A DNA stretch of 63,964 nt, counting the filler, from Collodictyon triciliatum (lineage: Eukaryota): the NCBI GenBank assembly GCA_043381765.1. It is 4 parts of 4 records of this genome, joined end to end, with 100 filler letters (N's around TTAATTAATTAA, not from the genome) between each part and the next. Parts side by side here need not be neighbours in the genome. Positions count along the whole stretch, not along the records: positions 1 to 18,723 come from JBHJMP010001346.1; 3 more parts are not named here. The stretch is one strand, 5' to 3'. The notes beneath the pieces are model-generated. The model saw only the letters and a program-made list of their open reading frames with translations, was not told the origin of the DNA and ran no database searches. The translations under genes and the position numbers were made by a program. The stretch's first letter is position 1; each line of letters begins with the position of its first letter. Shown here piece by piece: positions 1 through 43,900 of the stretch.

Positions 1-147
1 GAGAATCTGATCCTCGATGGACGTGAGTCCAGGCTGATCGCTTGCGTTGGACATGAAGCCGGCCTTCCTCCTTTTGGTCTGCTTTCTATCAAGATGGACA
101 ATTTAGCTAACATGGATGCCTCCACTCGGGATCTGGATCGGCTTTAA
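1..147 (+). CDS. Possible 3' end of an unidentified gene (partial)
   Basis: Frame 1 is open from base 1 (ENLILDGRESRLIACVGHEAG...TRDLDRL) to TAA at 145-147, followed by an A-rich tract. No family recognised. Confidence 0.3.
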   Translation, partial: ENLILDGRESRLIACVGHEAGLPPFGLLSIKMDNLANMDASTRDLDRL

Positions 148-1169
148 TGAAAAAGAAGAAATAAAAAAAAAAGTCTCTTTCTCGATGGCTCTTGTCAATC
201 ATCGTGTAGGGCTCTCCTTTTCTCGTCTGCTCGTGAATTACTGGAAGCAATTGTGGAAGCAGGTTTTTGAGGAGGGCTCAAAGAAAAACCGGTTGAATGA
301 ACAGTTGTATTTTGTGATGTCAAGCCATACCATTTATTACTTTCAAATGATAGAAAAGAACTCAAAATAAGATACATAAGAAAATTATAGTTGATTAATA
401 ATATATTCCAAATATAGAAAATCGAATTCGATTATCATCTTTTTAAATTCGTGTCGACATTTCGATGCACTACATGACCCATGACTGCAGTTTTTTCTTT
501 CGACTTAATCTGAATTAATTACTAGAACACACCAACTTATTTAACAAAACATTTACCGGATACAGACAGCGTGTGCTGAAGAAGGCCAAAAACGCACAAA
601 CACACGCTTTAAATTAGGCGCTAAAAACCATTTCATCGGTATATATATTAGAAATCCACCGTCCTGCGATTGACAGACGCTTTATTGTAATTCCTACAAT
701 CGGCCACTTTCATTTACCCTCCAAGTCACAAACACACCCAGCCACCCACGAACGCCTGCCCCGATCCCTGAACCAAAGGCACGTATGCCACATGCCAATG
801 ACAGCCACGCGCGAAGTTGGACAACAACAACAACAACTTCATTGCGCCTGCCAAACACACATATGCATACGGGATCATAGCACAACGCCTGTGATGAGTC
901 CTCCGAGAAACCGCGGGCCGCGCTGGTCGCAGCTGGTTCAAACAACCAGCTCCTCCAAGCTTTCTGGTGGTGCCCAGAGACCTCTGTCGCAGCGTGGATA
1001 TTGGATATATATATATATCCAATATCACAGTGGATGGGTGTGCCACCTGTCGAATGTCTCGCTCACAGACACCCTGATGCACGGCCAGAATGAAGCAGAG
1101 GAGGAGCGGAGGAGGAGCGGGGGGTTTTTTTTTTTTAAAAAATGACATCTTTAACCCTCTACCACCTAG

Positions 1170-4100
1170 ATGGAACTGACAGAGACATCGCGCTTCGGTG
1201 TCACCGTCAAGGATCTTCGCGAGTTGCTGGAGGCCGAGAAGGACAAAGGCGTCGAGCTGCTGAATACGAAATATGGAGGTCTGCAAACCCTTCATTTCTT
1301 CTCTCTTCATCTCTACTCCACTGAGGCGCTACACCTGGATTTCGCGTAGTGTCTTTCACTGCGATAGCAGCCCACTCATATATCTTATCTCCTCTCCACT
1401 CCCGCTCTCAATCCACACAGAATCAAATTCGTAGAATATTTCTCTTAGATTCCGCTTTTGTCATGATTGCACGAAGATTCACATAATCTGCTTTTTTTTC
1501 TTTGTTGTTGTTGCACGGCCTCTTTCAACAGGCGTCAGTGGGTTGGCTGCTGCGTTGAGAGTGGAGGTGAAGCAAGGAATTCCGTCCAACAACCCCTCGG
1601 GTTAGTATTCACATCTATTACTTCCCTTTCTCTGGGACAAACCCAAACAGCCAGTCAACCAATTATTTCATTCTTTTTTTTCTTTCTGCAGACGCTTTTA
1701 TGTTATGAGTTGGACGGTGGGTTCCCATATTCACTTCTGCTTCCTCTTTACACAGACGTTGCCGCGCGTATCTCACTCTTTGGAGAGAATGTGATGCCCA
1801 CGAAGCCGCCAAAGACCATCCTGGAGCTCGTGTGGAGCGCTCTGCAAGACTTTACCTTGATCATGTTGCTCATCAGTGCTGCGTTCTCTATAGGACTTGG
1901 TACTTTTCTTTTTCTTTTTTATGAGTAAAAAACCCCCTTTTTCATCTATGCACTTTGCCTCACCCAATTCTTTCCTTCGACCATGGTCATACGATCTTTA
2001 CTTCCACAAACCACCATAATAGCTCATCTTTGACGAGAAAGGTGATTAGCATGATGCGCTGTTTGTAATAGCCATTTTTCTTACTGTATTCTTCAATGAT
2101 AGGTATCTACGAAGATATCAAACATGATGTAAAGGGATGGGTGGAAGGAGTCGCCATTCTCTTCTCTGTCTTTGTTGTCGTCACTGTCTCCGCCCTGAAC
2201 GATTATGCGAAGGAGAAGCAGTTCCGCAAATTGAATGCCCAGGCCTCAGACATCTCCGTCAACGTCATTCGCAATGGCACCCAAGAGGTTTGTCCAATCC
2301 TATCGCAACGCTCATTCCTTGCTATTGCATGCCTCAATTACGGAACCAATAGTGCATTATTAGCAACCTATTTTCTTTTTGTTTGGTTTGCTTTCATGGT
2401 CACTTAGCCCATTATCATTCATACTTCAGGAAAATGAGTCCACCAACTATTCGATTCATAGCTTATATTATGGCTCAATTAAGCATTCATCTTTATTGTA
2501 GCAAATTTCCATCTTCAAGTTGCTTGTTGGTGATATTGTCGAAATCTCTGTTGGAGACATTCTCCCCGCAGACGGTGTTATTCTAGATGCAAATGACCTT
2601 AAAATCGACGAAAGCTCTCTGACTGGCGAGTCCGATATGATCAAAAAGTCCCATGAGAAGCCTTTCCTGCTGTCCAACACAAAGGTAAATTCCCACTAGA
2701 ATTATATTGCCATCCACATCAAAACAAAATACCTATGAATAGTCCATTCTTGCTATATCCCCCTTCCTTTAAGCAAGAAGTAACAAAACAAAGCAAGTTA
2801 AATCGGATTAATATGACTCTTACTACCTCCCGTATTATTTAGGTCATGGAAGGCAGCGGAAAGATGATTGTTGTTGCTGTTGGATGTAACTCACAGGCCG
2901 GCATTATCAAAGCACTCATTCTGACAGGGAAGTTCTCCACCACTGGTGCAAATACGTCTGAGGCTGACGGAGAGAAGTAAGTCTTGGCTACCTCTATGTC
3001 TTGTCACTGATGCGGTCTATCACAAGATGAGACGTCAGCGGTCCACCGTCAAGAATTTGAACATTTCCAAATCTTATATCTTATTGGATGTATGAACTCA
3101 TAGGAAGGAAGAGGAGGAGGAAGAGGAAGAAGCCACCTCTGTCCTTCAAGCTAAGCTAGAAGACCTCGCTATCCTGATTGGCAAGGTTCAATCTCATTCA
3201 ATCAAAACACCATGAAGAAACGTAGCAGTAGACGACAATTATCATCCACTTCAATCTAAAAAAAAAATCATCCATTTCAATCGGTCATTACGAGTTTGCA
3301 TCACATCACTATTTTCTAGAATTGAAGTAGAAAGTAACGGCTCAATGACAATTTATCGTTATAAAATTATCAGATTGGTACAACAGTGGCTGTTGTTGCC
3401 GTCGTCATTATGATTATCAGACTTCTTGCCCACAAACCAAATAACTGGGGTACTGATGAGTTCAACGATTTGATCCGCTTCTTCATCACTGGCATTACCA
3501 TTCTGGTCGTGGCTGTCCCTGAGGTTTGCATCCGTATGATATAGCTATGATATCAAAGCACTGAATCCATGGACGTTTTATATTATAGTGACTTTCTCCA
3601 TTCTAGGGAATCTGTTGTTTGCCTTCTAATTAGCTTTCATATTTCTAACATTCATCTGACATCCTTCAGGGTCTCCCACTCGCCGTTACACTTGCTCTTG
3701 CCTTCTCTGTCCAGAAGATGTTGGACGACAAGAACCTGGTCAAGCACCTTGACGCCTGCGAAACCATGTATGTTGACCTCTTTATTTCTGAAAAAATCAG
3801 AAAGAATCATGTTTTTTTTAGTACCAAACAAAAATGCAACCTAAAACAACCTGGGTTGCCTCATGAGTTATTCCTTATTCGTATCACCAACAACAGGGGA
3901 AGCGCCACCACCATTTGCAGTGACAAGACTGGTACCCTTACCACAAACCGAATGACTGTGATGTCCTCCTGGATTGGAGATATTAACTTGAGTCAGTTTT
4001 ATAACCCGATGTTTATGTGTCTACATAACCCAAATAAAGTAAGATATATCTTGGCCAATATTTACTGATTCACCTAAATATCGATACAATATTTCCTCGT

Positions 4101-7100
4101 GCGCATAGAGGAGAAACCAACTTTGAAGAACGTCAATCCCGGATATGCCGACCTCTTGGCCCGTTCCATCGCCGTTAACTCCACTGGACGCGTAGAGTTC
4201 AAAGGTGGCGTTTGGGACTACATTGGCAACAAGACCGAGTGCGGTATGATCAAGTTTTTAGTCGAGGAGAACTTCGACTATATGGCCATGAGAAGCAGTG
4301 CTCAGGTTCAAAGCAGAATCATCCTTTCCCTCATATTTGCTCAGTATTGATATTTCTTTGTATTTATGTTGCTTATCTTACAAATCATGGAGGAAATAAC
4401 TCACTCCAAGTTTCTCCCAGCCAATCCATCACACTCGTTCATTCTCTTGCATATCCAATTAAGTTTGCGCAGTATGAATCACACAGATACATCCCATTCT
4501 AATCCACTTACGAACCGTTTGTTAAGGTTGTGCGCGTCTTCCCATTCTCCTCCAAACGTAAGAGAATGAGTACCGTTGTCAAGCTCCCCACAGGTTCTCT
4601 CCGCATCTACACTAAGGTTTCTATCTTAAATAGAACTTTATTTGGAATATATATTACTTTCTACAAATATTTTGATTTGGGCACTGGAGATTGCCTTTCT
4701 CATCGTTAAGTTAATAATCACAACCAGGGCGCCTCTGAAATTATCCTTGGCCGCTGCTCTCACTATGTTGATGCTCAAGGACACTCTCACGTTATGACGC
4801 CCCAGAAGATGGAATCTGTCAATCGCGAGGTATTTCCTTAGCTTTTAATCGGCTTAGGTTCCGCTACACCATTTCCGTGACCACTTTTTGACGTAGAACA
4901 TATTGAACCCTCTTAGACCATCAACGCTTTTGCTGAAAACGGCCTGCGAACACTCTGCATGGCATACAAGGATATATCTGAAAGCGAACTCGAGCTTCTC
5001 GATGAAGAAAATGAGCCTCTCGCTGAGAAGGGACTGCAGTGTTTGGCCATCCTTGGTATTGAAGACCCTGTCCGCGACGAAGTCCCCAAAGCTATCAAGA
5101 CTTGCAATCGTGCTGGAATCACTGTTCGCATGGTCACTGGTAAGAACCGCATCCCAACACTCTTTTTGTTATTGAAACTCTTTATTGCACTGTTGTCGTA
5201 TACTGGCAACCGATTTCTATGCATTTTCCTCTTATGTGCTACTTCTTCGACTTATCACAAAATGATTCACCAGGTGACAACTTGACTACTGCCATCTCTA
5301 TTGCCCGCAAGTGCGGTATTATTCCTGAGGAGACACGCGACTACTCTATGTTTGCTATGGAAGGCCCTGCATTCCGCAAGCGTGTTCTTACTGAGGACGG
5401 CAAAATCAGACAAGTATGAAAGGCCAAATTATTCATATTCGATAATTGTCCAACACACTTCTCATTTCTTCTTTATATTGTAATTTTTTTTTGGAAAGCT
5501 GTTTTACTGACTCACCCAAAAAACAGGATGAGTTTGACCGCATCTATCCTCAACTCCGTGTTCTTGCCCGTTCCTCTCCTGCAGACAAATTTACACTCAT
5601 CACTGGATTGCTTGAGACCAATCTCCCTGATAAACAGGTTAGTACATCCAGACAGCAACTCACTATTCTAGCTATCTCTGGTCAGTGGATGAACCTCGTA
5701 CATATCATATCATCCTAATTCCTACTCTGATTAGGTCATAGCTGTCACCGGAGATGGTACCAATGACGCCCCAGCACTGAAGAAGGCCGATGTCGGATTC
5801 GCTATGGGAATTCTCGGTACCTCTGTCGCCAAGGTTTTCATTTTTTTTTTTTTTTACGCATGGGTATACTTTCCACTTGATTTGTTTGAAAGACCAGCCA
5901 TAATCACATGCAAACCAACGCCGAATGGCTATCTTCTTCATCCTTTTCCCCGTTCTCTTGGTATTTGAACACAATCATTCAAACTGATAGCCCGCGCGCT
6001 TATCTCTGTTTATACTACAGGATGCTTGTGATATCATTCTTACTGACGACAACTTCAGCAACATCGTGAAGGCTGTGATGTGGGGTCGCAACGTGTATGA
6101 CAGCATCGGCAAATTCCTGCAATTCCAGCTGACTGTCAACGTGGTTGCCATCACCATCGCTTTCATTGGTTCGGTTGTCAATGAGGAATCTCCTCTGAAG
6201 GCTGTGCAACTTCTCTGGGTGAATTTGATTATGGACTCCTTTGCTTCCCTGGCTCTCGCCACCGAGCCGCCAACAGATGCCTTGCTCAACCGCAAGCCAT
6301 ATCCCCGCGACCAATCCATCATCTCCGCCAGGATTGCGACCACAATCCTAGGAAATGTACCTTCAATTATATTCATCTATCATATTAGATTGACGCTCAC
6401 ATAGATGCTTTTGAGGTTTCTGCCCCTTTTACTGGACTAACAATCACCCTCGCACTGTATTCAGTCTATCTACCAATTGGTCATCCTCTTCACGATTTTG
6501 TACTCTCCCTCCTCGTTCGACCTTGAGGACGGATTTGGAAACACTCACCCTGGAGACCCGCCAACCAAGCATTTCACCATAGTGTTTAACACATTCGTGC
6601 TGATGCAACTATTCAACGAATTTAATGCCAGGTGCGAATTTAATGCATTAATGTTAATAATTTTATGTCTGATAATGCCGAAAAAATAAGAAAAATATAT
6701 GGTACTTGCAACTGTCATTTCGGTTCTGTAGATTAATGCTTAATTCCCACTAAAAAAAATTAATAGAAATCTTCACGGTGAGCTGAACCCCTTCCGCAAT
6801 ATCCAAAACAATCACATCTTCACTGGTATTTGGTTCGGCACATTTGTCGTTCAGGTTCACACACATTCTTAATTCGCACCCACAGAAATTAAATACAAAG
6901 CAGAGGTATCATCCGTTTTAATAAGCTACATAAGTCCCTTCCTTTCCTTCCCTCCCTTCCCTCCATTCCCTCCACCAATCAATCAATATATCTCACTACT
7001 TTGAGATACATTCTCTTTCTAGGTTTTGATTGTCTTCTTTGGTGACACCGTCTTTGGTTGCAAACCACTCAACGGGGACGAATGGGGCATCTGTATTGCC

Positions 7101-7334
7101 TTCGGAGCTGGAAACTTCTTCTGGGGAATCTTGCTGCAAACTGTCCCGGATGAATGGATTGCTAAGGTCATTCCCAGCCTTCAGACCGAGGCAGACTCCG
7201 CCACTGGTTACAACCAACATTCATCGATTCGCCTGCGCGACGGAGAAGGTGGGCAGCATCGCACAGCTTCTCGCCGCTCATCGTCCAAACGACAGGGTTC
7301 TGTCTTGCGCCGCGGAAACTCCCGCTTATCGTGA
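1170..7334 (+). CDS. PMCA: Plasma-membrane-type Ca2+-transporting P-type ATPase (P2B/PMCA), about 21 exons
   Basis: Spliced exons give [63 protein letters not shown], the phosphorylation motif CSDKTGTLT (~3916-3942), [64 protein letters not shown] and [16 protein letters not shown]. Introns are GT-AG. ATG 1170 follows CACCTAG, so an upstream exon is possible. Confidence 0.95.
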
Positions 7335-7460
7335 GCAACCACCTTAACTCTTCTTTATTTCTTTCCTCCCCTACGACCCTTCATAGCAACACACGCACAC
7401 AGAATTAACATTTGAAACCCTTGCATTAACATATGGATATGGAAGAGAAAGAGAGAGAAC

Positions 7461-7650
7461 AATAATAATAATAAAATAATAATAATAAAATAATAATAAT
7501 AAAATAATAATAATAAAATAATAATAATAAAATAATAATAATAAAATAATAATAATAAAATAATAATAATAAAATAATAATAATAAAATAATAATAATAA
7601 AATAATAATAATAAAATAATAATAATAAAATAATAAAATAATAATAATAA
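7461..7650. repeat. Compound (AAT)n microsatellite with a 14-bp period (AAAATAATAATAAT)
   Basis: Directly visible tandem array just downstream of the PMCA stop codon. Confidence 0.9.
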
Positions 7651-7789
7651 GTAGATATCTTCACCTTTTCAAACAAACAAACGATCATATATGTATCAGA
7701 GGAATGGAATAATTGTTGAATAGTATCCATAAGATAGGTGTTTTTTTTCTTTCTCTCTTTCCTCTCACTAATCCTATTTCATTTTCTCC

Positions 7790-8378
7790 ACCTTTCTTAC
7801 AACAACTACAGAAACAGCAACCAAGTTTGGCACCAATCCAGCGCCGGTGTCCACTAAAGTTTGGTCTCTATGGCATTATCATCACTTTGCTGGCCCCACT
7901 CTTTTGCTAGATGCAATTCATATATCAACCCTTTCTCTCTCTCCTATTCTTTTTCGTCCCCTTTTCCCTATTTTGTGTGGGGTGAGGTCGTTTCATTCCC
8001 CACAAACAGGCCAAAAGCTTGCTCTCGATCCTTTATTTCCCCCATCCATCTGTTCCGTCCCTGATTCTCCTCTCTATATTCTGCTCAACCACAGAATAAA
8101 AACTTCTTTATCATGGGAACACACCGAGTTGAACTCAAGTGATACCGTCGCTTCGGATGACTTGATACCAATCCTGAAACAGGTACTGGGCAGATTATTC
8201 CTTTTTTCTTCCTTCTCATCCCCTTCTCTCTTTTCTCTATTCCCCATCTCTATACTCCTCTGATGGCACATCCGCCATCACTATCCCCTTTTTACCTCGG
8301 AATACTTGCTTGGTGGTTGAAAAAAGATTGTTGGCATGGGCGCCAACAGCTAAGTCTGTCGTGAATAAAAAAAAAAAT
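7790..8378 (+). mobile_element. Probable decayed 3' end of a non-LTR retrotransposon
   Basis: The frame reading PSICSVPDSPLYILLNH resembles a degenerate C-terminal CCHC zinc knuckle of LINE ORF2. The segment ends in a stem-loop TGTTGGC-N6-GCCAACA (8329-8348), then GAATAAA and an A-run. No TSD found and the 5' boundary is approximate. Confidence 0.35.
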
Positions 8379-8867
8379 TTCCCTCTGTTCAAAGGCCGTT
8401 ACAAATAAAAATGAATAATTGATGAAGAGTTCATAATGTGATTGAAGAGATGGATTGGGTTGCAGTATTAGAAAACAATATTATTTCAACTATATTTACT
8501 TTGAAGGCAATCACAAAGCCGCTTATTCAGTTCTCCAAGACACTAGCCCCATTTTTTTCCCCTTCGCTCCATCACTTTTGCTATGCTTTTTGTGTGGATT
8601 TCTCTGCACGACCAAAATTTATCATAAGAAAACTAAATTTACCTATATCTTTGTACTTCAACCTCCGACCAACTCTTTCAAATCGGCTAGAGCAACTTCA
8701 GACTCGAATCATAAGCACACATTAAAGACACACACCTTCAACATCAGCACAAGCACATTTCCACCATCGAAAGCACACAGACAGTCAAGAACTTAAGTCA
8801 AAGACCGGCACAATACAAGTGATTTATTAAATCCCTTTTGCTTGGACACTCATTATTTTTAACTAAA

Positions 8868-8908
<41 letters not shown>

Positions 8909-10580
8909 CCGATCAACATAAGGTCAAGCAAACTGAATAACCCAACATGAAAACATACCTTTATTTTCTTTCTATTAAGAAAAGCGGAGGTTTACACCTA
9001 AGCAAGTCTTTTACCTTTGTCAGAATGTCAGAAGACTTTATCGAGAATGGGGTTGTCTATCAAAAGCTGGCAAATAAAAATAAAATGAAAGAAACAAGAA
9101 CGGGCCAAAGATGAGTCCCTTCAGCAAAACTTTATGTGATTGGCTCTAGTCGTGCCCAGCATAACCCCTGGGTTGTGGTGTCATTCACCAACCGACCAAA
9201 ACTCAAAACTCAAAACTTATTTACATATCCAAATAACAATAAATTCAACTCTTCCTCCTTCCTGCAAAGGTTTTAGGGCCCTCATCATTACGACAAAATC
9301 GCGAGCCAAGGAGAGCTGGGACTATTCCGGATTTCCGAGCCTTTCTGTTGCAAAGCATTGTTGGCCACGCATCCACACTATGTGAAATACCCCTTGATTC
9401 TTTTTTTTTTTTTTATTTTTTGAAGCTTTAGCTGACTATTCATTTTGTTGTTACTAAGAATTTTAAGTGAATCCTATTCCAATCTCATGCAGTTTGTGAT
9501 GCTTTTTGGGATCTTCGGGGCGATTGAATATCTGGTTGCTCTGCCCACAGTAAGATTACTTCGATGGAGATCCTTCAGACGTAGACTTTAAGAACGTCTC
9601 TTAGGTATTGGGTTTGATTCCAGGTTGGTTGTTGATCTGTTTGCTTTTTTCTCCTCAACTCGGCTTTTTTTCATGGGATATGCCTATTGGTGGAAAAAAT
9701 AAATCCCTCGTTTGTACATATTTTCCTTTATTCGATACAAGTGAATGAAGGAGTTTTTTTAAAATTTTTACAGGACGCCGTAGTTGTTGCATGTTGGCTG
9801 AAAGCAGTGACACGAGTCGGTTAAGGGGTTCAGGCCAGCAGCGTACGGAATCTTGATTTGTGGCTCGTCAATATACAACCGATATGGTCGAGAATAGTTG
9901 CAGCCTTTAAGAGGTGCGACTACCAAGGGCTCTGACTTCAATTTGATCGGAGGCCAAATTCTCCCTGGGGCGAAAGTGCACGCGACTACCCTGCTCTTCT
10001 TTACTATCAGATTCCTTTATATTCGTTCATTCTATTCGACTCCAAATTCAAAACCCTAAACTAATGCATGTCTAGTATTCAACAGATAACATATAGCAGC
10101 CGACAAACCAGCATAACTTCTTCAGCATAGGCATCAGCGGAACCGGCAAGAATATTGTATAATTATTTTTTGCAGACTCTGAAGAAATATACCTTTATTT
10201 TTAATTAGCAACTACAGTATTACTAAAATTTTTGGAAATATAGGTAATGCATTATCCATTCTTATAGTCTGAAGATAGTCATCCATTCAACTTGACTTCT
10301 TGAAATTCAAAATTATACTTTAATCGACCAGATTCAGTTATGACACATGTTTGGGAAAATCTCTACAGGTATTTTTATGGCTAAATAAACGCTAGAGTCT
10401 GATTCTTTGCTATCTTATTTATTTTTTACCTTTACTTTTCATAAGGCGTAGATGATATTGAATAATGCATGAATTAAAAATAGCCAAGTTGGATAAATCA
10501 ATCATGAGTTAAATTCAACGATATTAAAGGGTTTCATTCAAACAAAAAATATCTATATGATTAATACAAAATTTTCGACT

Positions 10581-10763
10581 TTTTTTTTATTCTTCCATTC
10601 CATTTTGTGCAGGACGGTGGAGATGTTGGCTTTGGTTCTCTAGCAATCGTTTGCATGGACGCAACTTGGTGGCCGGGTGGCATAGAATTAATCGGTAATC
10701 AGGAATTGCATCCCGCAGTTTGGCCTGTAGTCTGGGTCTTATGCTTGGATAAGAAAGACCAGG
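10581..10763 (-). mobile_element. 5'-truncated poly(A) retroposon copy with ~15-bp target-site duplication
   Basis: Flanked by ACAAAATTTTCGACT (10566-10580) and ACAAAATTTTCAACT (10764-10778). The T-run at the left end is poly(A) on the minus strand. Its 3' end matches the copy at 39496-39546. Confidence 0.75.
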
Positions 10764-13700
10764 ACAAAATTTTCAACTATTTTAATATTTTGATTATTTC
10801 TCAGGATGAAATCAAAAAAACCATTTATAATAGCACTTCACGAACTTTCAGAAAGGGCCCATCTGTCACCCATTTCATCTTACAAAGACTCTGGAGCTCT
10901 CATTTTTTGGTGATAAACAAGTCACAGTAAGTTGACCAAGCCAATTCATAGCATCGAAAGGAAATTTATTTCAAGGTTTCTAGTTATATTAATTTTTATA
11001 ATAATAAAAAACTTATAATCAAAAAGTTTGAGGGCATTAACAATAATAGAGCAATCTTTGGGCAAGATTTACCATGATTATAATAGTAAAAAAGTATGAT
11101 TCTTGTCTAATTTTCCCATCTAATTCTTATCATAAGTGAAAAGCACGAAATATTTTAAATTTGTATCACAGAAAATTCGTCACATGTTTTATATTCAATG
11201 GTAGAAAAACCAAATACGCACATTTTAAGTACATGTGTATAAAGCCTCATTTTTAGCAGATTATCAAACAAAATTCATTCTTCATTTAGGTCTCGCTTTG
11301 ATAAATGGTTCAATCTGGCAACTTCATGGACTAGCTGAAAAATCGCATTATTTTATTTAATCTACCATATTAAGTATTAATTATTCATCTTCAATCGGAA
11401 AATGTTCGAACTAAAGTCATGGACAAAACTCAGATACAGTTGAAAATGAGAGGGACAAAAGACAAAATCCGTGGGAAAGGGAACTGTTTCGATCTAATAC
11501 TTGGAGGAGGGGGGTGGGGTGGTGGATCGGCGGCTCCTAGTTTTCCCGATGGTCTGAAGTAAAGGTCTAAGAACGTACGGTGGGGGTGTTGGGTTGTGTT
11601 ATGTGTGGAAGTAAGTATGTCTTTGTCCAGTCATTCATGACCAAAAAATAAAAAAAATCATAATATTCTTTGTAAATTTTTGTAATCGAGAGTCATGCAT
11701 CCTTTTTTGCGGTAAGGAGGGTTAATCTAAGTTGAAAACATTACATATTTAACATATAAAATACAGCATGCATTAAGTCGAATAGTTTATAATTAAAATT
11801 ATTTCAGTTGTAAGACTATTACTACTAATGATAGTACAAAATCTATAAAATTAAGAATTATCATCGGAGTCTGGCCATTCTAGTTATTTCATTATTCAGT
11901 TGGTAGATTTAATCCTAACATAAAATACATGGAATCAATATTTTAATATTTATATTATAATTGCCCCAGCTATATATTTTCTAATGAAGTTAAATCAAGA
12001 TGAATGGTCTGCCTACAGAATCGTCATGCTATATCGTTTATTTTTCAATAATCGTATTACGTATCGCCTTATCTATATTAAATCTACAAAAAATCTTTAA
12101 ATTACGTATCTACCTGAAATTTTTTGTTATCTGCATACCCTTGGTATCCTTTTTTTAAATTCCGTTTTAATTAAATCAATAGATACACTTTTGCTTCAAA
12201 TGTGAATTTAAAAACCAACTAATCAACATATGAACCATTATTATGTCCAAATCGAAAAACACATACCATGTCCCCGCTAAAAACCAGTTTGCTGCTGAAT
12301 GATACACCACCCCTCCCCTTGACCGACCTGCAATCTTTCGTCCATAGCTTCACGCCCATACCCCTCACCTAACTAGACCTTGTTCGTTTCTCCAAGTGAA
12401 ATGATTTGTAGGTTTATCGCTCAATAAATAAACCAATATAATAGTTAATCGTTGTTATGTCATCTAAATTAGTTCAATTTTCTCCCTTAAATATTTAGAT
12501 GTCGATTTATCAAATCCAACAAACCCACCCTCCCCTTCCAATGAATTAGGGGTAATGAAAAGGTATTTCTTATATGTATTATTATGTTGCACTCGACTAA
12601 CCGAGGATATGGTAGACGGTTCACGCCCTTTTTATTTTTTCGATTATAATCATTCACGTTTATTCATAAATCCTTTTTATTAATCCTAAATATGTCTCTT
12701 ATATTTATGTTGATTTATAATTGATTTATCCATCTAACCCACCCCATATACAGTATGTCTTCTGTGATTAGTTCATATTAGTGATTCTATCATATGATTA
12801 AGCCTGATAGTGTTCAGTTTATTATGTTTGGTCAAAATATGGCAGAGTACAAGTATCAAATACGATTAAAATTTAATTTATTTATGTATTATTAATCAAT
12901 TTTCAACTAGGAACGTTATCTCTGTATTGATGCACACGTAAAATACCTCAATGACTAAATTTTCAATTATACATTACCGTTGAAACGATTGTGCTAGTAA
13001 ATTTATTAATATTCAGACCTGTGTTTCCTTTATCATAGTAATAATTATATTTTGTATCAAATTCTAGTACTAACCTTAGTGTAATAGACTTATTCTATTC
13101 AGAGCTCCAAAGAACCTTTATAGCACACAGTCTTCAAATTTTTAATGAAATATATGATTTACATATAACATATCACTATTAATAGTCAAAATAATAAAAC
13201 AATTTTTTTATCAGAGTGATTTGGTTTTGATTAGTATAGCTGGTTTTAGTTCAACAAATCATATTAATTTGGTTACTGTAAAAATATGTCCTTCAAACAA
13301 AGTTTGATTAGAAATCACTTTATTTGGGACTTATGATAGAAAATGAGATAATAATTGATATAAATCAGATAAATAAATGCAAAATGATACAGAAACGGGT
13401 TGTGAATCATGAAATCCATTAGAGATGATATCCAATACTCACACAACACCTTTTGATACTGCAATAAATTAGTTGCTGAAATTTAATGAATAATAGGATG
13501 TAGTTCATCGCTTAAGCCCCTATTTTGTACATAGACGGTTATACTTCAAGGGATATCATATTTTAATTATAATCAAATATAGTTGACTGAAAGACAATTT
13601 TCTAAGTTATATTAAATCATAATTATAATTTCTATCAGATATTATCGAAATTCATGTTCTAAAGGAAATCTTTTTGTTTGCTCCTATATGATGTTCATTC

Positions 13701-15320
13701 GATATAGTCAAGCGAACAGTAATTATTTTATCATTGTATCAGAGTAAGTTATCGAATAATATGACTTTTTTACAGTTATGATTGTCTGATTAATTATAAG
13801 CATAAAGGTTGCACTGGAAACAATAACGAATCGAATCAGTATATTTCGATAAATATGCAAATTATGATGATGAACAATTAATAATATACTGATTAATTTA
13901 TTGGAATACATCGATATTTATAGTCTTTCATTTTGAGGAATATTAAAATATAATTTCAACACTTTGAATCGAATAAAGGAAAAAAAATTTCAACAAATAA
14001 AGCAATTTTTCATAGGATACCACTGGTTCTGGTAATGAATATTTTATGAGATAATATTTTACAATATTCATCTGATGAAGAATCTATTAATACTTGCACT
14101 TGAATTATTATCGCATATCATTTCAATTTTAATATTATTCCCATACATCTCATGATTAATCCATATGCCAATCGATTAGCTATAAAAATTATATTTCATT
14201 TATCACTAACTTTTTAACATCATATCATCCGCTAATCCAATTCTGGATTGCTGAAAAAACAAGTTAAATGTATGATATATTTTTGGTCGATTAATCAAAT
14301 TAATTGGATGTTTTTTTTGATTTTAGACGCTGTTTCAAAGAATACATGATTGAATAACCAATTTAATATTTATTTCCTATCTTTATCAAATATTATATAC
14401 GAAATGTGAAAAATGTACCCAAATGATTGACACGGTTTTCCTTGATGACATGTTTTATTCATACTTTAGATGCACACTTAATTTCTTGATACGCATAACA
14501 TATAGCTGTTTTATCATCTTGAATCCTTTTAAAATCATGCAAATTGTTTGAATAATAATTAATTCCATATTTTTAATTATATGTGTGATATATTTTGATT
14601 TAAAAGTGCATATAATTGATTGAAAAGTCTGTTGTGAAATCTTTTGCTATTTTGGTTATCAAAATTTATTTATTTATAGCTTAGACAAACCAAACCTATT
14701 TTTATCAAAATGATCCATATATTATCCTATTATTTAAACTTAAACTTGATTTTTTGATTTATTATCATGCTCTATTCACAATAAGGCTATTTTGCATGAG
14801 TCCCATATTTTTGATATTGTGTTCCTTATGTCGTAAATTCATTTATTAGTTTTAAAGACATTATTTATCTAATGGTTTAATAGTAATTTTCCTTCAAGCA
14901 TCAAATCAAAATCTACTTATAATTGATACAAAAATGACCTTGCTAAAAATATAACCGAAGTCTAATGAATTTTATCAATCTTATAAAAAAATTGTGAGTT
15001 GATATCGATTTAATTTGAGATGGTGACTATTTTGCATTTTAATATAAGTGAATCAACTGATTAAGTCACTATATCATGTAATAAAATATTCATGTTTATC
15101 AATGGATATAAATATTAGTATTCATATTTTGAGAGATTTTATTATATAAGTATTATTGAATTTTTGTGTAGATAATCTATCTATGTATTTCTGAATCAAT
15201 TAATTAAAGTTTAAGTAGAGTGATTCAATATTAGATATTTAAGTAAATGTCTTGATTGGGTATTACATCACTTCATAAAATTTTGTATATATGTTTAAAC
15301 ACTCATCACATTAGTTTAGA

Positions 15321-18300
15321 ATGAGATTGAACTCAAAGTCGTTTGCAGCTATGTTGCTGTTGGGTGAGTTTTACTTTAATTGTCTTTTTTTGGTTTCTTT
15401 TCAACAGTTTATTGAGAGATTACTACAATTGTTTTAATTTTATTGACTTCAAATTATGTAGAATTTTAATTGATATATCTTTAGGATTGACACTCCACTG
15501 CCAATTGTATCTTGTTGAAGGGCAAGATGATTTGATTCGCACATTAACTGGTCATACTAGCAGTGTTCGCAGCGTTGCTGTTACTCCTAATGGATCGAAA
15601 ATCGTTTCTGGAAGTCGTGATAATACAATCAAAATCTGGAACCTTTCTGATGGAGCTTTGATTCGCACGTTATATGGTCATAATAGTTATGTTAACAGTG
15701 TTGCTGTAACTTCTGATGGATCGAAAATCGTTTCTGGAAGTAATGATAAAACAATCAAAATCTGGAATCTTTCTGATGGAGCTTTGATTCGCACATTGAA
15801 TGGCCATACTGGTAATGTTCGCAGTGTTGCTGTAACTCCTGATGGATCGAAAATCGTTTCTGGAAGTAATGATATAACAATCAAAATCTGGAATCTTTCT
15901 GATGGAACTTTGATTCGCACATTGACTGACCATACTAGTACTGTTTGGAGTGTTGCCGTTACTCCTGATGGCTCAAAAATTGTTTCTGGAAGTAGTGATG
16001 CTACAATCAAAATCTGGAATCTTTCTGATGGAACTTTGATTCGCACATTGACTGGTCATACTAGTGACGTTAGCAGTGTTGTTGTTACTCCCTATGGCTC
16101 AAAAATTGTTTCTGGAAGTAGTGATGCTACAATCAAAATCTGGAATCTTTCTGATGGAGCTTTGATTCGCACATTGACTGGTCATACGGATTCGATTGGC
16201 AGTGTTGCTGTTACTCCTGATGGCTCAAAAATTGTTTCAGGAAGTGATTATCCAGATAATACAATCAAAATCTGGAATATTTCTGATGGAGCTTTGATTC
16301 GCACATTGACTGGTCATACTAGTGGTATTTCCAGTGTTGTTGTCACTCCTGATAGCTCAAAAATTGTTTCTGGAAGTGCTGATAATACAATCAAAATCTG
16401 GAATCTTTGTGCTGCTGGTCAGTTCTATGATTCAGGTTCAAATTCTTGTCAACTATGCCCATCTGGAAGCTATAGCGCTGGAGGAACATCATCTTGTTCT
16501 TCATGCCCAAGTGGCACATACAATCCTTCAACAGGTTCTACAAATGTTGGTGCTTGTATATCATGCGCAGCTGGCACATACAATCCATCAACAGGTTCTA
16601 CAGATGTTGGTGCTTGTATATCATGCGCAGCTGGAACATACAATCCATCAACAGGTTCAACAAGTGTTGGTGCTTGTCTTTCATGTGCAGCTGGAACATA
16701 CAACCCATCTATTGGTCAGGTAACTTGTCTTTCATGTGCAGCTGGCACATACAACCCATCAACTGGTTCTACAAGTGTTGGTGCCTGTATTTTCTGCCAA
16801 GAAGGAAAATATAGCAACAAGACAGGTCAGATATCATGCCTTAATTGCGAACCAGGAACATACACAAACATTAAAGGACAGACATCATGTTTTGACTGTC
16901 CATTAGGTTTTTACAATCAAGAATCAGGAAAAACATTTTGCACACCATGCGGCCCAGGAACGTACTCGAATTCAACAAGAGGTAAATCCTGCGGAGAATG
17001 TCCAGCTGGGACTTTTAATCCAAACGTTGCGTCAACCAGCATAAGCAGTTGTCAACCGTGCCCACAAGGGAAATTTTCATCAAAATCAGGCGAATCAACA
17101 TGCGAAATTTGTCAATCTGGTTCGTACAATCAATATCCAGGTCAGACTGGGTGCACTAATTGTACTGACGGAACTTACAATCCGAGATTTGGCTCAACAA
17201 GCAACTCGTCATGTGCTAAATGCCCACAAGGAACGTATGGTAATGAACAAAGAGATGAATGTTTATCATGTCCAGCTGGTAAATTCAACAACAAAATAGG
17301 CTCATTCAATCAATCATCATGCATCTTATGTCCAAATGGAAGCTACAGCTCAGAAAGAAGTGCATCATGCAGCTTATGCGTATCAGGATTCTATCAAAAA
17401 GAAGGCATCACCAAAGACTCGAAATCATGCTACCCTTGTCCAAAAGGCACATTCAACTCAAACTCCGGCTCATATGGAAACACATCATGTATTGAATGTA
17501 CCCAAGGTACTTGGAATGATAGAGATGGACAAGCATCATGCACATCTTGTACAGCTGGTACATTCAACAACAGAACTGGTTCATTTAATCAAACATCATG
17601 CATTTCATGCCCAAATGGAAGCTACAGCTCAGAAAGAAGTGCATCATGCAGCTTATGCTTATCAGGATTCTATCAAAAAGAAGGAATCACAAAAGATTCG
17701 AAATCATGCCACCCTTGTCCAAAAGGCACATTCAACTCAAACTCCGGCTCATATGGAAACAAATCATGCATCGAATGTCCACATGGTACTTGGAATGAAA
17801 GAGATGGTCTAGCATCGTGCACATCTTGTACAGCTGGTACATTCAACAATAAAACGGGTTCATTTAACCAATCTTCATGCGTTTCATGTCCAAATGGAAG
17901 CTACAGCTTAACTGGAAGCTCATCATGCAGTCTATGTTTATCAGGATTCTATCAAAAAGAAGGAATCAAAAAAGACTCACAATCATGCTACCCTTGTCCA
18001 AAAGGCACATTCAACTCAAACTCCGGCTCATATGGAAATAAGTCATGCATTGAATGTCCACAAGGCACTTGGAATGATAGAGATGGTCAAGCATCATGCA
18101 CATCTTGTACAGCTGGTACATTCAACAATAAAACTGGCTCATTCGATGAATTTTCATGTATTGAATGTCCAGATGGAAGCTACAGCTCAGAAAGAAGTGC
18201 ATCATGCAGTCTGTGCTTATCAGGATTCTATCAAAAAGAAGGAATCAAAAAAGACTCACAATCATGCTATGCTTGTCCAAAAGGCACATTCAACTCAAAC

Positions 18301-18723
18301 TCCGGCTCATATGGAAACACATCATGTATTGAATGTGCCCAAGGTACTTGGAATGATAAGGATGGTCAAGCATCATGCACATCATGTCCAGCTGGTACAT
18401 ATAACAATAAAACTGGCTCATTCAACCAATCATTATGTATTTCATGCCCAGATGGAAGCTACAGCTCAGAGAGAAGCTCATCGTGCACTTTGTGCTCATC
18501 AGGATACTATCAAAGAGAAGGAATAGCAAAAGACTCAAAATCATGCCATGCTTGTCCAAAAGGCACATTCAACTCAAATTTCGGCTCATATGGCAATAAA
18601 TCATGTATTGAATGTCCACAAGGCACTTGGAATGATAGAGATGGACAAGCATCATGCACATCATGTCCAGCTGGTACATACAACAACAAAACGGGCTCAT
18701 TCAACCAATCAGCATGCATTTCA
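15321..18723 (+). CDS. Predicted secreted/cell-surface protein: signal peptide + 7 highly similar WD40 repeats + tandem Cys-rich (GCC2_GCC3/ephrin-receptor-like) repeats; 3'-partial
   Basis: Exon 1 15321-15363, GTGAGT...TTTAG intron 15364-15484. The spliced N-terminus is MRLNSKSFAAMLLLGLTLHCQLYLVEG/QDD. Seven GH...WN repeats at 15532-16407, then CxxCxxGT(Y/F)N repeats with many N-x-S/T sequons at 16408-18723, cut off by the contig end. Confidence 0.85.
17329..18723 (+). repeat. Intragenic higher-order tandem repeat, five 279-bp (93-aa) units
   Basis: CCA(A/G)ATGGAAGCTACAGC recurs at 17332, 17611, 17890, 18169 and 18448, an exact 279-nt spacing. Confidence 0.9.
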
Positions 18724-18823
18724 NNNNNNNNNNNNNNNNNNNNNNNNNNNNNNNNNNNNNNNNNNNNTTAATTAATTAANNNNNNNNNNNNNNNNNNNNN
18801 NNNNNNNNNNNNNNNNNNNNNNN
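18724..18823. other. Artificial contig spacer N44-TTAATTAATTAA-N44
   Basis: Identical 100-bp spacer at three places. The 12-mer puts stop codons in all six frames. Confidence 0.97.
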
Positions 18824-18936
18824 TATGTATGTATGTATGTATGTATGTATGTATGTATGTATGTATGTATGTATGTATGTATGTATGTATGTATGTATGT
18901 ATGTATGTATGTATGTATGTATGTATGTATGTATGT
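18824..18936. repeat. (TATG)n microsatellite at contig start
   Basis: Directly visible. Confidence 0.95.
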
Positions 18937-40900: not shown

Positions 40901-43900
40901 GCATCTTCATGTCTTAAACTATTCGGCTAGTACTTAATATTTTATTTGGCGGGGGGGGGGGGGGGTTATACAAATTGAATCCCTATTTAATTCTATGAAT
41001 ATAGGAATTCACTTAATCTACTGAAAAAGAGGATCACATCAAGACGATCAACCGGATTTTTCTTCGTTGAAAAGCCATTTTTCGATGTGGATGTTGAGTT
41101 AACCATTCCACAAGTGAGCATGAACCCATCTTTGGACGAAATTCAGAAATCTATTAATGCTGTTAGTGTTAGCATACTAGGCTCCACAAAATCACTACCA
41201 ATATGGAGACAGGTAGCCTACTATTATACCTTCTTTTTCTTTTTTCTTTTCTTCTTTTAGTCTTTAGTCATTTCTCATTTCTCATTTCTCATTTCTTTTT
41301 CTTTTGTTTTTACTTTCTTTATTTTCATTACATGATAAAGTGAACATGGTTATAGGCCAAAGAGGCCAAAGAGACTTTCTACGACATCATAGCCAGAGAT
41401 AAGGCTGTTGTTAGGATGGTTCTTCTACTAACGGGAAGGTAATTCATAAAAAGTTTTTTTTTTTTGTCGCAAGAACTGTAATTTAACTTAATTTTAGCTA
41501 CTGCATATCAACATAATCAAATTTCACAATATGAGGATTATTGCATCACCACCTAATTTTCACCCCCTTCAAAAAAAATAATAATTCAGCATTGAAGGTC
41601 TAAAGATGCAAGTTAATGATTACCTATCGACGTTTCACAAATATGAGTACTTATGGAAAGAAGATATGAAAAAGTCTTACGAGAGGTTTACAGAGTCTAA
41701 CCCCAGCATAGAGGATTTCGAACATGAAATGAGGAAATATCTAGACGAAGAGCACGCCATATCTTCTATTACAGCAATTCATGTGATTGGAGCTCTCTCC
41801 CTACACACACAGTCCCTTCGCTATTCATTAAAAGCTGAGGCAGCTGGTTGGAAGTTACAGTATGCCAAAAGCCTGCACAAACAAGCGTATGACGAGATGG
41901 TTGGAATAATCAAATACATTGAGACCACAGAGCAGCAACTTAAACAAGAAATTGTCGACATTGATTCCCTAAAGATAATTCTGGATCTAATCAAAGTTGT
42001 CCGGGACAAAAACACTGAGGTAGACATTATTATCGGTCCTGTAGAGGAAACTTATTCGCTGCTTACTCGATACGAGGTGCGAGTTCCAATGGAAGAGCTA
42101 GACCAAGTAAGTGAGCTACGTTCAAGATGGAAATCACTGAATAAGAAAGTGGCTGATGTCAACGACAATATACAACAACTTCAAATCAACTTCAAGAGGG
42201 ATCTAATTCGAAACATCAAGTCCTTCCAAGTTGACGTGATACAGTTCCGAAATGATTTTGACTCCAATGGCCCAATGGCTCCTGGTTTAAAATCATACGA
42301 GATTCTAGAACGGATGAAGTTCTTTCAAAGAATGTATGACGAAAGAGAGCGAAAGTCGACCACCTACGAAACTGGAGAGCAAATATTTAGTCTACCAAGA
42401 ACTGATTTCCCGGAATTAATAAAAACCAAGAGAGATTTAAAAGGGCTACAGTACCTTTTTAACCTTTACGAACAAGTGGAAGAGTCTATGGAGAACTGGA
42501 CGAATACTCCTTGGTCCAATATCAACCTGAAGCTGATTAAAGACAAAGCTGACGAATTCGAAGGGGTATTCAAGAAAATTCCAAAAAACCTTCGTGAGTG
42601 GGAGATTTCGTCAGAGATTAAGTCTACCCTAGACGAAATAAACAGAGCTCTGCCTATCCTTGAAAGTCTCTCGCATCCTTCGATTCGCCCCAGGCATTGG
42701 AGCCAAATCATGCACATTGCCGGAAAGAGCCTCAAGCTGGACTCTGATGTTCTCTATCTCAAAAATATTCTAGATGTCGGTCTGTCAAAGCATAAAGAGG
42801 ATATCCGTCAAATAGTCGAGGGCGCTGAAAAAGAAGAGTTTATTGAGCACCGACTGAGACGGATTCAAGAAGACTGGGCAGATCAGGTGTTTACATTTAC
42901 TGCGTTCCGAAACCGAGGCCCCATCTTACTGAAAATACAAGAGACATCTGAGATCATGGGACTACTGGACGAAACACAGACAAATTTATCCACTATAATG
43001 GCATCGAGGTATATATCCGCCTTCAAGGAAGAAGTTGGTTCATGGATCAACAAGCTCTCTATGGTTTCTGAAGTAATAGAAGAAATTTTGGCAGTACAAT
43101 CAACTTGGAGCTCGTTAGAATCCGTCTTTACCACTGGAGACATAATGAGGCAGCTCCCTCAAGAGACCAAACGGTTTTCGAACGTTGACAAACATTGGGT
43201 AAAACTAATGAATAAAGCCTTCGAGGTAAGAAATGTACTTCATGTATGTTTAGCCACAGAGAATGTCCGAAACATTTTGCCTCATCTTATGGAACAATTA
43301 GAGCTTTGCCAACGTTCTTTAAGCTCATACCTGGAAATGAAAAGGTCGATATTTCCCAGCTTCTACTTTGTATCCGACTCTGTTCTTTTAGAGGTACTGA
43401 GCCAAGGAATGGACCCAAATGCGATCCAAGGTCACTACAAATCCATTTTCGAAACAGTGTCTTCATTGATAATCAAAGAATCATCCGTGGCGAATGAGCC
43501 TTCCACAATCAGAGCTGGTGTATCCCCCGAGGGAGAAATCATCCAATTATCCACACCTGTCAGTAGTAGTAAAACTGTCGAAACATATTTGAAACAGGTA
43601 GAGGCTGGGATTGTCCATACCATCAAAAAATCATGCATGGAACTATCTGCAGGATTCCAGGGATTGAGTCTGGCAGACTTGCTAGATAAGTATATTTCAC
43701 AACTTGGTATTATTGGACTCCAACTTTTGTGGACCTCAGATGTTCAAAATAGTATCTCAAAATCAAAGACCGAAAAGAATATTATGACCATCCTCGGCAA
43801 GCGGATAAACTCGACTCTAGCCGATTTAATATCACTAGCTAGTAAAGAAAACAGCGGGCCAATCAACCAGATGAAGCTGGAAAACATGATTATGTTTCAA

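Follow-up and report, generated by a model that had tools for sequence, protein, structure and literature searches.

Can a canonical WD40 propeller be exported from the cell and displayed on a cysteine-rich stalk? The question is raised by a gene of the eukaryote Collodictyon triciliatum that lies at positions 15321 to 18723 of the stretch of DNA analysed here (the window: 63,964 nucleotides (nt), filler included, joined from four parts of assembly GCA_043381765.1, of which the first, positions 1 to 18,723, is JBHJMP010001346.1). Propellers of the canonical WD40 type are generally regarded as interaction platforms of the cytosol or nucleus, whereas the propellers known from outside the cell come from other families, namely YWTD, Kelch, Sema, FG-GAP and RCC1-like. 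The original prediction for this locus was a diversifying surface receptor, with a secreted propeller of exactly seven WD40 repeats on a Cys-rich stalk. Our analysis indicates that the locus is a genuine gene from a microbial eukaryote, truncated at its 3' end, and we consider it reasonably probable that this gene encodes a secreted or surface protein with a propeller head on a stalk, serving recognition or adhesion. If this is true, a PF00400 propeller sits between a signal peptide and a disulfide-rich stalk, and the WD40 fold is able to work in the secretory pathway.

Gene model and domains of the WD40-stalk gene

The gene appears to be split into two exons. Exon 2 has no in-frame ATG, and Met occurs only at residues 1 and 11 of the spliced protein; an upstream exon is therefore needed. 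Between 12000 and 15484, the sole phase-compatible exon with an ATG and a GT[AG]AG donor is exon 1, the second candidate being its own internal ATG at 15351. When exon 1 is spliced to exon 2, the frame runs for 1094 codons with zero stops up to the contig end at 18723. The claim that a small first exon at 15321-15363 had been missed by open reading frame (ORF) calling is borne out in the sequence by its ATG, GTGAGT donor, AG acceptor, phase 1 joint and open frame, and the spliced frame reproduces the proposed N-terminal peptide exactly. The features of the gene are as follows.

15321..15363, plus strand: exon 1, 43 nt (14 codons and 1 base), with the ATG, the n-region and the first half of the hydrophobic core
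15364..15484, plus strand: putative intron, 121 nt, GTGAGT...TCTTTAG, donor at 15364 and acceptor ending at 15484
15485..18723, plus strand: exon 2, joining exon 1 in phase 1 and open to the contig end
15485..15522, plus strand: start of exon 2, completing the hydrophobic core and adding the c-region, whose last residues V-E-G precede Q-D-D of the mature chain
15523..16407, plus strand: seven-bladed WD40 propeller, 295 amino acids (aa), 7 repeats of 42-44 aa, 0 Cys (PF00400, Tandem Repeats Finder (TRF), AlphaFold2)
16408..18723, plus strand: Cys-rich stalk, 772 aa of Ephrin_rec_like/TNFR-like repeats, 3' end open
17265..18723, plus strand: super-repeat of 279 nt (93 aa) in 5.2 copies within the stalk, 88% matches by TRF, forming the last 1.46 kb and reaching the contig end

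The putative intron has a pyrimidine-rich tract before its AG, and its 121 nt are an ordinary size for this assembly, in which a dynein gene on another contig has a GT..AG intron of ~147 nt. One freshwater metagenome contig from a relative carries a net 47-nt indel in this stretch (joint 15369->15427, with 10 letters between and 61 on the shorter side). Since 47 is no multiple of 3, this gives a weak hint that the stretch may be non-coding. Within the intron, a T-rich stretch of 35 nt (15385-15419) is the sole match of several metagenome contigs from two runs, which are unlike the locus on both flanks; this stretch is probably low-complexity sequence. Upstream of the gene, between 8000 and 15330, the longest ORF is at most 163 aa and none has an obvious domain (one ORF was domain-tested), so that a nucleoside triphosphatase (NTPase) or other cytosolic N-terminal module is not in sight. 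NTPase families were likewise not found among the 25 best of the 53 Pfam families that match the protein.

The predicted N-terminus resembles a signal peptide. Its n-region has the basic residues R2 and K6, its hydrophobic core is 11 residues long, and the Kyte-Doolittle maximum for a 9-residue window is 2.57 at residues 8-16. The V at -3 and the G at -1 of the V-E-G motif agree with the -3/-1 rule for cleavage sites. The mature chain predicted in this way starts 3 residues ahead of the first outer propeller strand.

The first domain is a complete propeller. The Pfam model PF00400 matched in 7 stretches (E=4e-74, 242 bits against a cut-off of 27), TRF found a 126-nt unit in 6.9 copies (86%), and the AlphaFold2 single-sequence model has 28 strands over residues 4-294 with a predicted local distance difference test score (pLDDT) of about 95, which amounts to seven four-stranded blades. 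All three uphold the count of exactly seven repeats. The strands are ordered as seven D-type strands and seven A-B-C sets, and the N-terminal strand can therefore close blade 7. The 28th strand is followed at once by the first Cys, making the propeller a complete cassette joined without a linker to the stalk. The closest solved relative of the head is 2ymu_A, a repetitive 'WD-40 repeat protein' (E=3.5e-177); the designed symmetric propellers 7bie and 6y7o are also among the closest, ahead of FBXW7, G-beta, APAF1 and WDR5. By sequence, the best matches among those listed are bacterial WD40 proteins with several propellers, cyanobacterial ones included, together with fungal NACHT-WD40 proteins. 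Many eukaryotic WD40 proteins depend on the cytosolic chaperonin for folding. Because this head is consensus-like and its nearest solved relatives include designed propellers, a head of this consensus-like bacterial type may fold without the cytosolic chaperonin.

Each blade contains one N-[LI]-S sequon. We rejected this as a sign of adaptation to secretion, since W-N-x-S/T occurs in 214 of 4255 WD motifs (5.0%) in a set of 319 WD proteins. The idea is weakened further by three WD proteins that have W-N-x-S/T in all of their motifs, and by the non-independence of the seven repeats.

The first stalk Cys codon is at 16408, directly 3' of the propeller end at 16407. From there to the contig end the protein matches Pfam PF07699 (Ephrin_rec_like / GCC2_GCC3) in 18 stretches (E=5e-119, 388 bits against a cut-off of 23.1), and the NCD3G and TNFR_ELAPOR1 models also match over the same Cys repeats. 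The predicted region of more than 770 aa of CxxCxxG repeats was thus recovered as 772 aa with 84 Cys and 41 CxxCxxG motifs. Its description as rich in N-glycosylation sequons holds in part: the 22 N-x-S/T sites exceed the 15.2 +/- 3.2 of composition-matched shuffles, but the excess is modest, with 22 or more sites in 51 of 2000 shuffles. The AlphaFold2 single-sequence model is uninformative over the Cys repeats (pLDDT 30-48). The best stalk relatives are only 27-37% identical (best 120 listed). In four freshwater metagenome runs (X1-X4), many short contigs are 85-99% alike to the locus, mostly over the stalk super-repeat; parts of the locus without cover in these runs carry no meaning. The super-repeat array runs into the contig end at 18723. 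The contig probably breaks inside this array, and the repeats would probably be the reason why the assembly stopped there.

From the arrangement of these domains, an extracellular location would be the most economical reading. Export appears most likely because the Cys array is expected to fold only in an oxidising compartment, because it is in one frame with the propeller, and because the only start available adds a signal-like peptide. The original proposal of an extracellular location is supported by the same two elements, a 772-aa domain of an extracellular family with 84 Cys that follows the propeller in frame and a unique start that completes a hydrophobic N-terminus.

Heads on related stalks and the WD40-stalk junction

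To place this architecture among its relatives, the two halves were tested separately on every retrieved protein (488) and DNA locus (163). These sets are the top of much longer lists of matches, with the metagenome loci being the best 80 of 359 relatives and the prokaryote genome loci the best 80 of 287; they speak to rarity among the best relatives and leave uniqueness unproven. No protein of the 488 combined a WD40 part with this stalk (352 had the WD half only and 136 the Cys half only), nor did any of the 163 loci (80 metagenome, 3 viral and 80 prokaryote). The 80 metagenome loci divided into 45 with WD only and 35 with Cys only. Of the prokaryote loci, 76 of 80 matched the WD part only; most titles name cyanobacteria, and the best segment identities reach 65%. 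Homology listings for the whole length and for the junction (best 120, 150 and 120 rows) were dominated by WD40 proteins with several propellers and by giant proteins rich in Cys; the combination was absent from these rows, and a database-wide absence is beyond their reach. One contig of run X4 (record 31) appeared to bridge the end of the WD repeats and the start of the stalk, with 21 letters on the shorter side, which is too weak to count. WD-like metagenome contigs run past 16405 into more WD repeats and not into Cys repeats, with loose ends. A search of the window with the protein by tblastn gave 1 high-scoring segment pair, the gene itself, and thus no second copy in the window. Full-text literature searching, judged by title and abstract, found no published account of WD40 with this stalk; PMC4501334 mentions WD40 for coronins only.

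The same stalk is found behind other heads. Among the best 120 stalk relatives, PF07699 occurs together with RCC1-type families in 9, with Kelch families in 2 and with PF00400 in 0. In one complete, transcript-derived protein (P0380), a signal-like N-terminus precedes an RCC1 propeller at residues 90-384, and a long array of Ephrin_rec_like repeats, a transmembrane (TM) segment and a C-terminal membrane domain come after it. Another (P0388) combines a Kelch head with an Ephrin_rec_like stalk and a TM segment. A representative of a 302-member cluster (P0358) has an RCC1 head and a hydrophobic tail. In two metagenome loci (L045 and L059), Kelch repeats run directly into Cys repeats. A third locus (L003) has a C-type lectin among the Cys repeats, and a fourth (L011) has a signal-like N-terminus and a weak B-lectin match ahead of them. 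Like the protein studied here, the RCC1- and Kelch-headed stalk proteins have a signal-like N-terminus and an N-terminal β-propeller followed immediately by a long Ephrin_rec_like/TNFR-like array, and their full-length members end in a TM segment or hydrophobic tail. They differ in the head, which is here a canonical PF00400 propeller of near-identical repeats, and their stalks are 27-37% identical to this one. Literature searches found no tested function for these proteins.

A further head type was observed in a viral context. On a contig labelled as a giant-virus metagenome-assembled genome, a protein of more than 1400 aa (L058:4358-8797, with L062/L081 giving the same protein) has a signal-like N-terminus, a head of ~427 aa without a Pfam match and then Ephrin_rec_like repeats. 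It is another head type on the same stalk.

Propellers followed by Cys-rich regions are also known from the CRINKLY4 receptor kinases of land plants. In the excerpted text of bioRxiv 10.1101/2020.08.10.245050, CRINKLY4 (ACR4/PpCR4) has an extracellular seven-bladed propeller and a TNFR-like Cys-rich domain, and the propeller carries the signalling function. According to the same excerpts, the CR4 propeller is structurally closest to BLIP-II and UVR8, each of its blades has a disulfide, and a buried N-terminal strand fills its pore. The order of a seven-bladed propeller and a Cys-rich TNFR-like region is shared with our protein. In contrast to CRINKLY4 as described there, the propeller here is of the PF00400 family, has 0 Cys in the whole segment that separates the signal-like peptide from the stalk, and is followed by at least 772 aa of repeats instead of one Cys-rich domain of ~90 aa.

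The statement that the architecture is not a described family can therefore be kept for the WD40 head on this stalk, given the searches above, and has to be given up for the broader design, since the same stalk carries RCC1, Kelch and lectin heads and CRINKLY4 offers a precedent. Judged by these comparisons, the unusual feature is the head type, a canonical PF00400 WD40 propeller; the propeller-on-stalk design itself has precedent. The protein probably serves recognition at the surface or after secretion, and represents an existing but uncharacterised head-on-stalk design with a new kind of head; the architecture as a whole is not new. It would extend the range of heads in a class of protist surface proteins that is widespread but unstudied, with interchangeable heads on Ephrin_rec_like stalks, and its compact, well-behaved head domain would offer an experimental entry to this class.

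The lack of a second WD40-stalk protein in the sets tested could also mean that the WD40 and Cys arrays come from different genes or organisms, or that exon 1 is unused. We consider such an artefact of assembly or gene model quite unlikely. In its favour, the assembly is fragmented, the contig ends in a repeat, the metagenome WD-like contigs continue after 16405 into WD repeats, and base composition is uneven. The GC content at third codon positions (GC3) of the WD40-stalk gene (15487-18723) is 0.23-0.30, compared with 0.5-0.6 for the ATPase exons on the same contig (3649-6380), 0.45 for dynein (41585-51700) and 0.61 for oxysterol-binding protein (OSBP; 60752-63700), and the WD part prefers T-ending codons where the stalk prefers A-ending ones. 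Several observations speak against an artefact. The frame is open across the junction without any N, and the propeller ends exactly after its 28th strand with the Cys following at once. Beyond the last repeat, the arrays share about a dozen bases with earlier repeat ends, a stretch probably too short for an assembler to be misled. A very low GC3 and a near-exclusive use of AAA for Lys are common to both halves, and equally abrupt Kelch-to-Cys junctions occur in the independent contigs L045 and L059. The low GC3 equals the local non-coding GC (~0.28) and, like AAA for Lys, is common to both halves; we therefore read it as weak codon bias and not as a chimeric contig, although an AT-rich compartment or a foreign or recent origin is possible. 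The difference in codon endings says little, the arrays having been amplified from single founder units.

An origin of the AT-rich right half of the contig from a giant virus or integrated element was considered and rejected: similarity to the three viral loci is confined to the stalk and amounts to 30-43% identity, and the 7 kb upstream have no gene-like ORFs.

Variation within the repeats and a proposed mechanism

The seven WD repeats are highly alike, with 26 of 42 columns invariant, and their differences are concentrated at four codons. Codons 11, 13, 29 and 31 of the repeat account for 127 of the 256 nonsynonymous pairwise differences. The pooled ratio of nonsynonymous to synonymous change (omega) is 2.43 at these codons and 0.23 at the other 34 WD codons, a contrast that comes from one gene with seven non-independent repeats. 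The variable codons form two pairs, 18 codons apart, and each pair flanks a conserved residue (V/I in one and an invariant Asp in the other). A similar pattern was reported for the Podospora NWD/HET-E genes, in which codons 7, 9, 25 and 27 are positively selected and flank the purified codons 8 and 26 (Paoletti et al. 2007, excerpted text; PMC1805685). In the same excerpts, the positively selected codons sit in the d-a loop and the b-c turn, at the top of the propeller (PMC1805685). The layout here is that of the Podospora proteins with an offset of four, the fungal numbering being mapped from the text of PMC1805685 and not from a figure; as our four codons are also the most variable in their own table, their agreement with the fungal positions counts as a priori only in part. 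The part of the original prediction that called the protein diversifying finds support within the gene, where the top-face codons stand out and repeat the pattern of fungal HET-E/NWD.

Between the five copies of the stalk super-repeat, synonymous divergence (dS) is 0.28-0.57, omega is 0.14-0.30, and the Cys columns are invariant (10/10). The low omega and the invariant Cys indicate that the gene is under selection and not in decay; the stalk has been kept by purifying selection since its copies diverged. This bears on the idea that the locus is a young, lineage-specific fusion, non-functional or unexpressed, in which a possibly horizontally acquired, cyanobacterial-type WD40 cassette was placed ahead of a stalk gene. 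The WD-only prokaryote loci described above, with their mostly cyanobacterial titles and identities of up to 65%, would fit this idea, as would a GC3 at the neutral level and the failure to find an orthologue of the same architecture among the sequences examined. We nevertheless regard such a fusion as very unlikely, because 1094 codons have no stop, because the stalk copies have diverged synonymously with every Cys kept, and because the 34 WD codons outside the hypervariable set have an omega of 0.23. Moreover, consensus-like WD40 repeats of any source match at 50-65% identity, and similarity alone therefore shows no transfer.

Two known systems bear on what a variable propeller might do. HET-E, HET-D and NWD of Podospora and the cyanobacterial STAND-WD40 proteins share with our protein the internally conserved 42-aa WD repeats, and the excerpted text on HET-E/NWD likewise places the variation on the top face, in two pairs of codons with a spacing of 18 codons (PMC1805685). 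These proteins are cytosolic and have an N-terminal effector and a NACHT/STAND NTPase. In contrast, the protein here has no NACHT/STAND module, a signal-like peptide directly before blade 1, and a Cys-rich stalk after the propeller. The second system is PKN, a female-gamete recognition protein of brown algae. In the searched text of bioRxiv 10.64898/2026.02.20.706836, PKN has a signal peptide, a seven-bladed propeller, a glycosylated spacer and a TM segment, and its fast-evolving distal propeller face decides gamete recognition. Compared by description and not by sequence, PKN is a working analogue for the function of a propeller-on-spacer protein. Its spacer is mucin-like and disordered and does not consist of Cys repeats, and the word WD40 has 0 occurrences in the searched text.

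Based on these comparisons, the following mechanism can be proposed. A signal peptide, encoded by exon 1 together with 12 codons at the start of exon 2, would direct the chain into the endoplasmic reticulum. Its first domain would fold as the complete, Cys-free seven-bladed propeller, of a consensus-like type otherwise present in cyanobacterial and fungal STAND/NLR-like sensors. In canonical WD40 topology, strand C ends on the bottom face, and the top is made up of the d-a and b-c loops. Once strand C of blade 7 is complete, the chain would thus exit at the bottom of the propeller and pass straight into a stalk of at least 772 aa, in which disulfide-stapled Ephrin_rec_like repeats would act as a rigid spacer. 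As the stalk would leave from the bottom, the variable top face, with its 28 residues (4 x 7), would point away from it. This makes the suggested position of the propeller as a distal head plausible. The top face, with four hypervariable residues per blade, would be the ligand-binding surface, and the putative job of the protein would be recognition or adhesion, whether of prey, mate, self/non-self or microbe. If true, the combination of a conserved scaffold with four variable residues per blade, which is the logic of fungal NLR-like allorecognition, would be usable on the cell surface.

A bolder version, which we hold only tentatively and think doubtful, is that a hypervariable, NLR-type WD40 sensor, possibly of cyanobacterial origin and able to fold without the cytosolic chaperonin, moved outside the cell as the head of a stalked receptor and had its top face diversified by repeat exchange, in the manner of fungal allorecognition genes. 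In that case a freshwater protist would use, outside its cells, the equivalent of an immune-receptor module known from inside cells, and would recognise prey, mates or self/non-self with it.

An extracellular protein of this kind need not be a receptor. It could be a structural or adhesive component of a coat, wall or matrix, with the propeller serving for scaffolding or oligomerisation. According to the excerpted text of PMC3656445 and PMC6341118, protists have protective surface coats formed by CXXC-rich proteins. The stalk here is long, repetitive and under purifying selection, the available 1094 codons show no ligand, partner or signalling domain, and most of the matching freshwater metagenome contigs fall on the stalk super-repeat, which is what an abundant family of repeats would give. 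A coat function is possible but in our view unlikely, as the concentration of change in four top-face codons per blade fits a binding surface and is unexpected for a scaffold.

Several points weigh against an exported recognition protein and temper our preference for it. The junction of exons 1 and 2 is predicted from sequence alone, the expression of the gene is presumed, and the signal-peptide call is based on hydropathy and the -3/-1 rule. The propeller is without disulfides, unlike the extracellular propeller of CRINKLY4. The gene is truncated at 18723, upstream of any TM or glycosylphosphatidylinositol (GPI) region, where a presumed anchor would lie. The architecture rests on a single contig of a fragmented assembly and did not recur in the proteins and loci tested. 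The GC3 is far below that of the ATPase, dynein and OSBP genes, and third-base preference differs between the two halves. To these are added the narrow base of the omega contrast and the partly post hoc choice of the four codons. Weighing these points against the open frame, the exact junction, the unique start and the pattern of selection, we retain the recognition or adhesion protein with a propeller head on a stalk as the reasonably probable reading.

Other features of the window

Three identical linkers, each of 44 N, TTAATTAATTAA and 44 N, are found at 18724-18823, 37554-37653 and 56417-56516 and join four pieces, the first three of which are 18723, 18730 and 18763 nt long. The window thus looks like a chain of size-sorted contigs from a fragmented assembly. 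Because the linker is artificial and represents no sized gap, the DNA 3' of 18723 is unrelated to the WD40-stalk gene, and because the window consists of joined contigs, genes on its different pieces are not neighbours. The pieces other than the first carry clearly eukaryotic genes (dynein and OSBP). The remaining features are listed below.

18724..18823, no strand: artificial contig linker N44-TTAATTAATTAA-N44, outside the gene
about 1467-6404, plus strand: P-type ATPase, in exon-like ORF pieces, with the phosphorylation-site motif DKTGTLT in ORF 3649-4068
41585-51801, plus strand: axonemal-type dynein heavy chain, one frame that stays open for 3448 codons (Pfam DHC_N2, AAA_6, DYH2-5-8_CC)
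about 51802-51948, plus strand: dynein intron of ~147 nt, GT..AG, after which the conserved C-terminal region follows
60752-63889, minus strand: OSBP gene with a PH domain, one long open frame

The ATPase lies on the same contig as the WD40-stalk gene, and we take it to be of the P-type family from its DKTGTLT motif. The presence of an axonemal-type dynein heavy chain indicates that the organism is able to build flagella or cilia. The OSBP gene contains low-complexity tracts of poly-Lys, (PK)n and (SQ)n. On the 3' side of the first linker, a (TATG)n run is followed by a Sec5-like exon. Long microsatellites of the (TATG)n, (CAAA)n and (GT)n/(GA)n types are found at 18824-18935 and at ~28.2-29.8, 31.6-32.0 and 57.6-58.2 kb, and the microsatellites of the window often appear as repetitive pseudo-ORFs in several frames.

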